From: Octopus vulgaris
Taxonomy: Eukaryota
Direction of reading: 5' to 3'
Length of the DNA: 64,000 bases
Assembly: GCA_951406725.2 (NCBI GenBank)
Contig: OX597815.1
Coordinates: 13,702,001-13,766,000, forward strand
The position numbers and the translations under genes are program-made. The notes beneath the pieces are model-generated. The model had not been told where the DNA came from. It searched no databases and worked only from the letters and a program-made list of their open reading frames with translations. Shown in pieces: positions 3,366-47,610 of the stretch; positions within the stretch are counted from its first letter, which is position 1; each line of letters starts with the position of its first letter.

Positions 3366-4090
3366 ATGAGCACATCTTCCAAAACCTGTAATCGCAAAAT
3401 TACAAAAATGGAGCCATATCTTCACAAATGTAACGGCGCCAATACAACGAACGTAGAACGAGAGGAAGCCTTTCAGTGATGTAGATGCTGCAAGCACTCG
3501 TCCTCCTTTTCAAATTAACATTTTCATTAGTGAGACGCTTGTTGGAAGAGAAACATTTTACATTTTTTTGTAGTTGTTTTCATAAGGAAACTTTAAATTG
3601 CCAATGAATGTTTGACCAAGATGTTCAGTATTTTTTCTTAATCTTTCCAAATACCTTTGCCAAAATGTCCTCGATTAACTTTTGAACAATTTTATACACA
3701 AGTCACTTCATTTTTGATGGATATATGAGCACCTCTTCCAAAACCTGTAATCGCAAAATTACAAAAATGGAGCCGTATCTTCACAAATGTAACCGCGCCA
3801 ATACAACGAACGTAGAACGAGAGGATGCCTTACAGTGATGTAGATGCTGCAAGCACTCGTCCTCCTTTTCAAATTAACATTTTCATTAGTGAGACGCTTC
3901 TTGAAAGAAAACATTTTATATTTTCTTTTTGTAGTTATTTTCATAAGGAAACTTTAAATTGCCAATGAATGCTTGACCAAGATGTTCAGTATTTTTTCTT
4001 AATCTTTCCAAACACCTTTGCCAAAATGTCCTCGATTAACTTTTGAATAATTTCATACACAAGTCACTCCATTTTTGATGGATATATGAG
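3366..4090. repeat. Tandem duplication, two copies of about 360 bp
   Basis: ATGAGCACATCTTCCAAAACCTG...GATGGATATATGAG at 3366-3729 recurs with few differences at 3725-4090. Confidence 0.95.
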
Positions 4091-16450: not shown

Positions 16451-16680
16451 TACTCTTTTATTCTTTTACTTGTTTCAGTCATTTGACTGCGGCTATGCTA
16501 GAGCACCGCCTTTAGTCGAGCAACTCGACCCCGGGACTTATTCTTTTTGTAAGCCCAGTACTTATTCTATCGGTCTCTTTTTGCCGAAACGCTAAGTGAC
16601 GGGGACGTAAACACACCAGCATCGGTTGTCAAGCAATGCTAGGGGAACATACATACACACAAACACACACACATACATAT

Positions 16681-16725
<45 letters not shown>

Positions 16726-19606: not shown

Positions 19607-19669
<63 letters not shown>

Positions 19670-19855
19670 AATATTAGGAAATAAATCCAAATTTACAGGG
19701 AAAAATCAGATTTAGGATTGAATCCAATTTTATAGTAAAATATTATATTATATTAAATTAGAGACAAAACCACTATTATGCAAATCAAACAAAGAAAGAC
19801 TTAAGCCAATACATTAATTAATTTATACAAATTTAGAAATTTAACAATTATAAAT

Positions 19856-19916
19856 AACCACTACGATCGTTTCATGTCTTATTTCAGCACATCTTTGAGA
19901 CATTCTTCAGGTGGTT
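19856..19916 (-). ncRNA. Type I hammerhead ribozyme (minus-strand copy)
   Basis: AACCAC-CTGAAGA-ATGTCT...AGACAT-GAAA-CGATCG-TA-GTGGTT on the minus strand. Confidence 0.9.
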
Positions 19917-20049
19917 TCAAAACCTAAAATATAATCAATATTTTTAAGATATAAATAATCTATCATAAAAATTTACTTATAATAAACTCAATTATTAAAT
20001 ATGATTATATCGAAATCGACTATTATATTGATTATATTTTAGGTTTTGA

Positions 20050-20110
20050 AACCACCTGAAGAATGTCTCAATGATGTGCTGAAATAAGACATGAAACGAT
20101 CGTAGTGGTT
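20050..20110 (+). ncRNA. Type I hammerhead ribozyme (plus-strand copy)
   Basis: AACCAC-CTGAAGA-ATGTCT(18-nt loop)AGACAT-GAAA-CGATCG-TA-GTGGTT: canonical core, 6-bp stems I and II, palindromic stem III, GUA triplet. Confidence 0.92.
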
Positions 20111-20217
20111 ATTTATAATTGTTAAATTTCTAAGTTTATATACATTAATTAATGTATTGGCTTAAGTCTTTCTTTGTTTGATTTGCATAATAGTGGTTTT
20201 GTCTCTAATTTAATATA

Positions 20218-20271
<54 letters not shown>

Positions 20272-21779: not shown

Positions 21780-22130
21780 GGCGCAGGAGTGGCTGTGTGG
21801 TAAGTAGCTTGCTAACCAACCATATGGTTCCGGGTTCAGTCCCACTGCGTGAGAGGAAACTGAGAGAAGCCTGTCGTATATATGTATATATATATATATG
21901 TATGTGTGTGTTTGTGTGTCTGTGTTTTTCCCCCTAGCATTGCTTGACAACCGATGCTGGTGTGTTTACATCCCCGTCACTTAGCGGTTCGGCAAAAGAG
22001 ACCGATAGAATAAGTACTGGGCTTACAAAGAATAAGTCCCGGGGTCGATTTGCTCGACTAAAGGCGGTGCTCCAGCATGGCTGCAGTCAAATTACAAGTA
22101 AACGAGTAAAAGAGTAAAAGAGTAAAGAGT
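21780..22130 (+). mobile_element. SINE family B, internally deleted
   Basis: Same head and tail as 16451-16890 but lacking roughly 65 nt after CCCACTGCGTG; (GTAAAAGA)n tail. Confidence 0.9.
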
Positions 22131-45849: not shown

Positions 45850-47235
45850 TAACAGTTTAGAAAAAAAAATATTGGTTTCATTTGTAGCGTGAACTAGACA
45901 TATCTTCAGTTCTTCTAAATGATAATTGTTCTCTGCAAATAATGTTTATTTTAAACCACAAGAACTCCGGTGATATTTCAAGAAATATTCCGCTTAAAAA
46001 ATTATGGCCGGCCTTGATAGCTGCGTTTTCCAATTTTGAAGCAAAAATTTCCGAAAATGTCGACAACTCCCCACGGCTTCCATCTTGGCGTTCATGTAGC
46101 CTCCTGCCTCATGTGAGTTCATAAGGATTATATATTCTTCTGCCATACACAATTTACATATTTTTGTTCCATTGCGACAGAGTCCTCAAGTTTCTAGTAT
46201 TTTCCACCTGATGTTAAAGGGCATATGATTTTCATTTAAGCGCCTATATATACTACGAGTGTCGATGTGTTGCGTCTTTCCGGGACCCTGAAAGAAGATT
46301 TGCGGTTGTTTCTCAGGCGAATTTTAAATTTGGATTCACAAGATCTGGCATAAATTTTAGTGTGTGTCCCTATGTTTACATTGTTGTTACTGATATTTGT
46401 CCTACTTCTGCTTGAGGCTACCTTTGCTTGGTACACTGTAGTCTCGATGTTACATGGGCATTCACTTCTAATCCTGCATAAACAACCTGCCTCTATCAGT
46501 GGTTTAGGAGTGCTAAATATTTGTCTCTTACCATTTGTGTGATCGCGTGAAATGCTTATCAACCAACCTAAGAAAAAGCTTACGAACGCATGTACGAACG
46601 TTTACGGAGAAGCAGGGAGCGAATCATAAGGTCTCGCGGTGGAGTTTCCTTTTATGATTACTCGATCTTTGTGTATATACTATATGGTCCTTGAACCCGC
46701 TGGCCGCTAGCGCCTCATTCTATGCGGGAGCCGCTTCGTTGAAAATATCTTTATTTGAAGATAAGTTTGAAATCCGTTTACTAATACCTTATATTAGGTT
46801 TTTGAACACTATGTGTGGGTGGCAAGATGCTGTATTAATGTATGATAGCCATACAGGTATGGTCTGTATGTGCCTCTGTCTAAATCAGGCGTGACATCCA
46901 AGTAGTTCACCACGGTGAGGTTATTCTGTATGTTGATTTTACAGCCAAAGTTGTTGAGAGTGTGTATGATGTCCTTTCTAAGCCTATTTAAAGTATGGCC
47001 TCTGGAGATGGTTATGGCATCATCTCTATATAAGCCGAAATGGATAAAGGGGAATTTATTACCTAGGGTGTCCAGAATGTAAAACCCTTTAAGGTTGCAA
47101 ATATCAGCGCTGTCGTATACCCTCATAGCGACGTTGACGGAGCCTTCAGGGTCAGTTCGTTTGACCCAGGTTGAACCCTGGCTGTATAGTAGCGTTTTTC
47201 TAGTGTGCATAACTATATCAATTTCTCTATCACTT
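45850..47235 (-). mobile_element. Penelope-like element (Naiad-like), decayed RT and GIY-YIG endonuclease
   Basis: RT: VAMRVYDSADICNLKGFYIL...GLYRDDA...VNYLDVT; EN: CLCRIRSECP...VYQAKV...FKIRLRN...NTSTL...IRWKIL...ICKLCMAE. Confidence 0.92.
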
Positions 47236-47610
47236 ACATGATATAATTATGCACGCTAGGAAAACGCTCCATCTCATTAACTTGATTAGTGCCTTATAGG
47301 AAGATATTCTGTACACTAGATTTTTCCCCTTGATTTCTAATCAAACACTGATGGGGCTACTACGTAGCCATACTTACCTGATCTACTAGAAACACAAAAA
47401 TGTCTCTCAAATCACATCCCGTCGAACTCAAAATATCTAAGGCACACTATCTTTCCACCTGTCATATAAACAGCAAAGAAGGGACGATGTTGGCATAAAT
47501 GAAATTGATTATAGATATTCTTGGTTTGTTGCTTTAATTCTCATCTCGATTGAACCCGCTTTAACGGTCGGGTAAAGCAATACTGGTTCGCAGTCTCAGG
47601 TTTCTATAAT

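Follow-up and report, generated by a model that had tools for sequence, protein, structure and literature searches.

The window analysed here, a stretch of 64,000 nucleotides from Octopus vulgaris (contig OX597815.1), contains a long hairpin with a hammerhead ribozyme motif on each strand. An inverted-repeat search of the window placed the arms at 19731-19941 and 20025-20235 (96% complementary, with a spacer of 83 nt). Trimmed of their (TA)n edges, the arms extend over 19740-19941 and 20025-20226, 202 nt apiece, with 4 mismatches at 20072, 20134, 20138 and 20143. Only the first of these is located within a ribozyme, in loop II. The 560-nt region has a folding energy of -310.8 kcal/mol (z = -37.6 against shuffles). 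The original prediction of near-perfect inverted arms of ~200 bp, with one hammerhead per strand and a difference between the two in loop II, is confirmed by this geometry, the core being found once on each strand. Of its bounds for the feature, 19666..20225, the start takes in a 70-nt tail that does not pair with the right arm.

The left flank is a (TA)n microsatellite (19609-19665), the apparent insertion target, since (TA)n flanks recur at sister insertions. It is followed on the minus strand by a "tail" of ~70 nt (19666-19739), present on the left arm only, whose outer end is the putative distal start of reverse transcription, as judged from the two end classes of the copies described below. 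The left arm proper is a hammerhead-bearing exon of a pseudo-LTR (pLTR) on the minus strand (19740-19923; acceptor side 19923, proximal end 19740) and contains a type I hammerhead at 19856-19916 (minus strand), for which cutting is predicted 3' of the A at 19862 on that strand. The next 100 nt (19924-20023, minus strand) are the retained 3' end of the pLTR intron, with the AG acceptor at 19925-19924; this sequence is found in longer copies and is missing from spliced copies. The unpaired loop of the hairpin (19942-20023, minus strand) lies inside this intron end. The inversion junction at 20024 is a 1-nt insert attributable to neither arm. On the plus strand, the same intron contributes 18 nt of its 3' end (20025-20042, AG acceptor at 20041-20042), followed by the tail-less, hammerhead-bearing exon of the right arm (20043-20226), which would begin at a proximal start of reverse transcription. 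The right hammerhead (20050-20110, plus strand) has a predicted cut after A20104, and its loop II differs from the left copy at 20072. The right flank is again a (TA)n microsatellite (20227-20268), and (TA)n on both sides masks any target-site duplication. The right arm is an inverted copy of the element's 3' end that lacks the 70-nt tail, and the intron end is retained by both arms.

Several minor features were observed in the surroundings. The contigs of four public runs all read A at 20072, which is the family state; the T in the assembly may be specific to this copy or this individual, or else reflect an error of assembly. A 121-nt inverted pair (16579-16699 and 21877-21997, 91% complementary, 5.2 kb apart) brackets the hairpin; its halves are probably copies of one short interspersed repeat. 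The 40 long ORFs listed for the window revealed no host gene.

The hammerhead core pattern matches the window at 19864-19910 (minus strand) and 20056-20102 (plus strand), and none of 100 shuffled sequences. Both copies have the attributes of a type I hammerhead: CUGANGA and GAAA cores, helices I and II of 6 bp each, a weak palindromic helix III consisting of one C-G pair over a palindromic GAUC loop, and an NUH cleavage site. The cleavage triplet is GUA, with its A at 20104, in agreement with the cleavage position proposed originally. Stems I and II remain paired across families of differing sequence. The computed pair probability of helix III is 0.003-0.004, and the best fold of the isolated motif is not a hammerhead and does not stand out against shuffles (z about -1.1). 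Rfam gave no gathering-level match over the window and no hammerhead up to E 10, the matches being low-complexity chance matches only. Thus, the description of the two ribozymes as intact holds at the level of sequence, not of demonstrated activity.

Single minimal hammerheads are reported to be inactive and dimers weakly active (in the available text of PMC4209133), and the hammerhead of a Penelope-like element (PLE) of Anolis carolinensis requires protein to cut (PMC11167929, as far as its accessible text describes it). By analogy, the ribozymes here are predicted to be passengers. The arrangement at the locus leads to the same prediction. In a read-through RNA from either direction, the antisense copy would be transcribed first and the sense ribozyme after it; the two are perfectly complementary, and both are predicted to be silent passengers. 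It had also been proposed that self-cleavage competes with the formation of long dsRNA. Each transcript would indeed contain one ribozyme and its antisense; there would hardly be a competition, as the stems of the ribozyme have a computed probability below 1e-29 in the full RNA.

Used as a genome query, the hairpin gave 103 matches from the 40 candidates scored, out of 1,969. The left arm with its tail matches dispersed copies at 85-98%, and the left arm plus 70 nt constitutes the common 3' end of a dispersed repeat. Longer copies extend upstream into an ORF that runs in the sense of the hammerhead and contains reverse transcriptase (RT) motifs, a CxCx5C linker and a GIY-YIG domain. The layout of the full element is pLTR, ORF (RT, CxCx5C linker, GIY-YIG), 3' region and pLTR. 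The pLTR consists of a 28-nt first exon, a GT-AG intron of 0.7-1.4 kb, the hammerhead exon and the 70-nt tail. It also occurs upstream of the ORF in several copies, as in L072, with the end of the tail at 3509 and the ATG at 3576.

The Hydra clade of PLEs is defined by a single ORF with a C-terminal GIY-YIG domain, a DKT motif, a CxCx5C linker, CxxC/CxH motifs and (TA)n targets (PMC8557442, section 11). The octopus family follows the same plan. Single open frames of 733 aa (L078) and 695 aa (L082) contain the RT motifs and IYIG; DKG is replaced by DKT (QSDKTRNLY in P0004 and P0005); the linker CTCRDKSKC, as well as CYLC and CRH around the E and N of the endonuclease (EN), are present in P0001 and P0003, with no CCHH; the hammerhead is located in the pLTR near the 3' end, sense to the ORF; and the insertion target is (TA)n, sister insertions included. 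There are also differences. P0005 reads KWK at the N-terminal position where the clade has RWK, a conservative change. The tail measures 70 nt, compared to 30-40 nt in the clade. The element spans about 5 kb from the upstream hammerhead to the 3' end (L074), because its 3' region bears an intron, whereas Hydra-clade elements tend to be shorter, generally under 3 kb. An Asn-rich, in-frame stretch of ~90-130 aa between the RT thumb and the endonuclease (L078:3728-5929, plus strand; L082:3929-6016, minus strand) also sets the family apart from the clade; it resembles the N-rich inserts of rotifer Penelope elements described in the accessible part of PMC3846280.

The RT of the family is 39% identical to that of a second Hydra-type element (E = 8e-72), and pairwise RT scores are E = 2e-14 against a Hydra-1_Obim-like fragment and E = 0.002 against another PLE-type RT. 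Pfam and PDB searches gave no relevant match for the ORF, and a homolog search returned 12 proteins, mostly without name, two of them labelled Octopus bimaculoides. A first assignment to the Neptune clade was dropped on the definition of Hydra in PMC8557442. The assignment to Hydra draws on the motifs, the hammerhead, the (TA)n targets and the pairwise scores. Hydra-1_Obim from O. bimaculoides is listed as a member of the Hydra clade in the supplement of PMC8557442, with the remark "no pLTR" there. By contrast, the family described here has a clear pLTR, and it is separate from Hydra-1_Obim by protein and hammerhead sequence, compared by eye. Judged by its sequence, the window hairpin is the 3' end of a Hydra-type PLE, 5'-truncated and present head-to-head. 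The inverted PLE integration considered originally as the simpler origin is thereby supported, the sequence being the 3' end of an element with RT and GIY-YIG and the junction being unique.

Other Hydra-type elements were encountered. A decayed one lies in the window at 46236-47246 (minus strand), with an RT 30% identical to that of the hairpin family; by eye it is very close to Hydra-1_Obim as given in the consulted supplement of PMC8557442. L046:6899-8698 (plus strand) contains a 599-aa open frame of a further Hydra-type family, with an RT 39% identical.

Genome-wide, 1,340 hammerhead cores were found (671 + 669; control 0) with a core pattern that covers several families. The first 100 core matches listed include 11 head-to-head pairs with differing gaps. 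Opposite-strand pairs with cores 40-70 nt apart gave 140/143 strand matches (control 0/1), corresponding to at least 140 tight pairs, while cores 125-155 nt apart, the spacing in the window, gave 7/7 strand matches at 9 places. The majority of the tight hairpins belong to a family with a different hammerhead (GAUU loop III; L110-L136), which has the last 70 nt of the arm (20152-20222) in common with the window's family. In both probable DNA runs, the summed contig depth over these 70 nt exceeds that over the hammerhead part ~100-fold.

The sequence 5' of the hammerhead in the tight pairs differs from that at the window locus. It corresponds to sequence located 0.7-1.4 kb upstream in long copies, where it is followed by GTAAGT, GTACGT or GTATGT; at the window locus, the sequence 5' of the hammerhead has AG as its last two bases, 13 nt ahead of the core. 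A second donor, ~200 nt past the ORF stop, is joined to the same acceptor in L051/L070, L063/L082 and L066. The join in the window's subfamily has AG-GT on both sides, and the joins in sister subfamilies show no microhomology. The use of two GT donors with one AG, together with the lack of microhomology in the sister subfamilies, indicates precise GT-AG removal. GT donors, an AG acceptor and exact genomic joins from two donors are the marks of a spliceosomal intron, which measures 0.7-1.4 kb in this family and ends 13 nt ahead of the hammerhead core.

In the window's subfamily, the genome contains 133 spliced and 65 intron-type arms (controls 0). Both types occur together in 9 of the 12 stem-II classes listed, counts that are not fully de-duplicated, and the exon-1 variants match between spliced and intron-type arms within classes. 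Three ORF-bearing copies are also spliced (L070, L079 and L082). The presence of both states in most classes, the two donors and the spliced ORF-bearing copies imply that intron loss happened many times. The spliced arms stop at an initiator-like site. Among the first 100, none extends 6 nt or more past TTAGTT and 4 extend 5 nt. TTAGT is a variant of the initiator. We infer from the copies that transcription starts at this initiator-like TTAGTT. The A of TTAGTT is reached by 22 of the 100 arms, and in 13 of the 22 it is preceded by a G where the template has T. This G suggests a copied RNA cap, and no more than suggests it, since for 7 of the 13 the partner arm could also have supplied the base.

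The Penelope element of D. virilis has a pLTR intron of 75 bp, kept in inserted copies (PMC2377424 and PMC4209133, in the text available), and Chlamys-3_cRei has a 5' UTR intron (PMC8557442, likewise). All three share an initiator, a short exon 1 and a spliceosomal intron that ends just 5' of the hammerhead. The octopus intron differs from that of D. virilis Penelope in its length and in the second, upstream donor. In the accessible parts of the papers on both elements the intron is retained, whereas here 133 of the 198 counted arms are precisely spliced. It is likely that the family inserts from spliced and unspliced RNA alike, with one RNA copied twice per insertion.

To characterize the inverted insertions, we compared 106 distinct head-to-head pairs, a search-selected set that includes sister families and was classed by script, with some arms classed as "other". 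Copies of the family end about 184 or about 254 nt past the splice acceptor. In 101 of the pairs one arm has the tail, in 5 neither arm has it, and in none do both. Both arms are spliced at the exon-1 donor in 29 pairs and at the upstream donor in 2, and both are intron-type in 11; no pair is mixed, and the remainder have a truncated or unclassed arm. A test from coordinates alone, based on 100 of the 133 spliced and 46 of the 65 intron-type matches, gave 21 spliced/spliced, 7 intron/intron and 0 of 28 mixed pairs, with 10.5 mixed expected (P = 2e-6). The two arms have equal stem-II lengths in 58 of 61 pairs (0.20 expected by chance). The 5' reach is unrelated to the tail: in 76 pairs, the tailed arm is longer in 35, the tail-less arm in 35, and 6 are ties. 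The 76 junctions comprise 40 overlaps, 7 blunt joins and 29 inserts, several of the alignments being clear outliers. Sequence identity between arms is no guide to a shared template: the two arms of a locus average 98.6%, the best other arm 98.9%, and the own partner is the best match in 25 of 66 pairs.

These pair rules favor two primings on one sense RNA over fold-back, as far as the sequences of the copies can tell. Two primings at two start sites on one RNA would explain why the tail, splice-state and 5'-reach rules all fit. The absence of mixed pairs is also compatible with two RNAs of the same class from one source locus. We found no counterpart to the three rules in the accessible text of PMC8557442, PMC3846280 and PMC4209133.

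We therefore propose, with a probability of roughly 0.8, that the window locus consists of two 5'-truncated PLE 3' ends placed head-to-head in (TA)n by two reverse transcription events on one unspliced sense RNA, with both ribozymes silent. In this model, the element protein would nick both strands of the (TA)n target. One cDNA would be primed at the end of the tail and another 70 nt further in, each would end at a variable point or at the 5' end of the RNA, and the two cDNA ends would then be joined and filled in. At the window locus, the tailed cDNA would have extended 100 nt into the intron and the tail-less cDNA 18 nt. Spliced, capped RNAs would give rise to the many tight double-hammerhead hairpins, because the 5' end of the spliced RNA is only ~41 nt ahead of the core. 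The ribozyme would reside in the 5' UTR of the mRNA, where, by prediction, cutting would require another sense copy or the element protein. A comparable biochemistry was described in vitro for a lizard PLE, in which RT starts at two sites and both DNA strands are extended (PMC11167929, in the part available). That element, Poseidon PAc of Anolis carolinensis, resembles the family here in its two internal RT starts bounding the tail, its AT-rich targets, the cutting and extension of both target strands, and a protein-assisted hammerhead that is dispensable for insertion. It differs in belonging to another clade, and the in vitro work, as far as it was accessible, covers neither inverted insertions nor splicing.

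An explanation of the splicing data without frequent template splicing is that a few intron-less masters spread as short non-autonomous elements, each pair arising from two RNAs of one master. An internal promoter would remain in spliced copies whose 5' end is the initiator, provided that it works like that of D. virilis Penelope (described in the text seen of PMC2377424), and such masters also predict the absence of mixed pairs. The co-occurrence of both arm types in most stem-II classes with matching exon-1 variants, the use of two donors and the splicing of ORF-bearing copies all speak against this explanation, which we consider unlikely. Fold-back, in which one cDNA primes itself or an antisense template copies itself back (the latter as proposed in the available part of PMC3846280), accounts for the concordant splice state and subfamily within pairs, as well as for the short overlaps at 40 of the 76 junctions, the palindromes at some junctions (L003) and the longer tailed arm at the window locus. 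A folded-back copy cannot, however, gain a tail that is missing from the first cDNA, yet the tail-less arm extends further 5' in 35 of the 76 pairs, and tail-less arms share their fixed end with solo tail-less copies. An antisense template would not be spliceable at sense GT-AG sites, yet 29 + 2 pairs are spliced on both arms. Fold-back as a general route is contradicted by these observations, and we regard it as improbable.

The resemblance to viroid-like RNAs noted in the original prediction raises another reading, namely an ambisense RNA, with one ribozyme per polarity, that is propagated as a single unit. Ambisense RNAs of the Avsunviroidae type have a rod-like fold and hammerheads in both polarities. 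The locus shares both traits, and one tight junction does recur, at 6 listed loci. At these loci the tail is on the start-site arm in 2 cases and on the other arm in 4, and three stem-II classes are represented, which argues that the junction re-forms independently and does not spread. Inversion junctions otherwise vary from pair to pair, and a search of the 2.8-Gb genome with the 32-nt junction of the locus, allowing 1 mismatch, finds the locus itself and nothing else. This check speaks against propagation. Moreover, the sequence belongs to a DNA retroelement, being the 3' end of a PLE with an ORF, and the ribozymes are exact mutual complements that are predicted to be unfolded. Propagation as a viroid-like unit is thus highly implausible. 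We find it equally hard to credit that the inversion is an assembly artefact. The contigs of four public runs (two probable DNA, two guessed RNA) show no joint over 19942-20228, no listed contig spans the junction, and the T at 20072 is absent from them; the hole in contig cover has no bearing on either expression or an artefact. The arms differ from each other at 4 positions and stop at the fixed proximal end of the family instead of running into the flanks, which makes an artefact unlikely, and the locus obeys the one-tail rule of 101 of the 106 pairs.

The locus can also be compared with animal non-LTR retrozymes (PMC7229834 and bioRxiv 10.64898/2026.07.22.740005, in the portions available), which likewise have a type I hammerhead with a weak palindromic helix III and are PLE-related. 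Retrozymes are head-to-tail tandem repeats that yield circles, whereas the window contains a single head-to-head pair, which is unable to release a unit by double cleavage. Dual hammerheads on opposite strands, 100-700 bp apart, were reported in Schistosoma mansoni (PMC4209133, text seen in part), and inverted truncated copies with a one-sided tail and (TA)n targets are typical of EN+ PLEs according to the section consulted of PMC8557442. The window locus, a head-to-head 5'-truncated copy with a one-sided tail, shows no difference from the inverted-pLTR units and dual minimal hammerheads described in the accessible text of PMC8557442, PMC3846280 and PMC4209133. By itself, it is an ordinary PLE stub of a previously described kind and should not be mined as if it were viroid-like: a screen of animal data for ribozymes in both polarities will encounter such stubs by the hundred.

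A scan for A-to-G changes compared 227 locus records, a redundant set, with 7 natural references. Signals at L084, L089 and L130/L131 proved to be mis-alignments of TA versus TG microsatellites; with these removed, bursts were found at three places. The clearest is at L036:1021-2189 (the same place as L024; G000:C3 near 175.99 Mb), on the sense strand, where 87 of 115 substitutions are A-to-G and 4 are G-to-A (P = 2e-21). The changes fall into two blocks, one for each copy of an internal duplication. There, 84 of 263 As after T or A are changed, compared to 3 of 67 after C or G (P = 7e-7). A preference for T or A before the edited A is the neighbor bias of ADAR. Background substitutions are symmetric (900 A-to-G, 846 G-to-A, 863 T-to-C and 903 C-to-T). 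The other two places, L042:600-2600 (= L013) and L076:6200-7800, have A-to-G-rich segments in both orientations and are rearranged, structurally complex and noisier. The segments of both orientations suggest that antisense or fold-back RNA may sometimes have been the template, a point that weighs against the model proposed above. The bursts suggest that double-stranded element RNA was edited and then reverse-transcribed. The dsRNA idea has support at the level of the family, from the burst in a sister copy; no ADAR-type burst was seen at the window hairpin itself.

The significance of intron keeping in PLEs is called unknown in the available text of PMC8557442, and the part of PMC3846280 seen leaves the origin of inverted repeats undecided between antisense self-priming and an unspliced sense template. 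A Hydra-type family with both spliced and unspliced insertions makes these two questions testable. Among the papers listed by the literature searches, we identified no report of intron-less PLE insertions or edited PLE copies. We hold it about an even chance that intron retention is not a fixed trait of PLEs, and that one sense RNA, mostly capped and spliced and otherwise unspliced or ADAR-hyperedited, is copied twice from two starts onto two target strands, the tight hairpins representing cases in which both cDNAs ran off the capped 5' end. If so, the family would offer the first view, at the scale of a genome, of the way in which inverted PLE insertions arise. The copies with exact intron removal indicate sense templates and locate the likely start site from DNA alone, while the tail, splice-state and length rules separate fold-back from the two-primer model and yield predictions for the in vitro PLE system. 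Genomic copies of the ADAR type would show edited RNA of the element entering the genome of the germ line.

Two further arrangements were seen in the family. At L084:4570-5888, an inverted insertion with both arms spliced has ~700 nt of RT coding sequence directly between the arms, which suggests a template jump. L087:883-1982 (minus strand) contains a head-to-tail array of about six 3'-end units of ~120-140 nt, without hammerhead, adjoining one longer copy.
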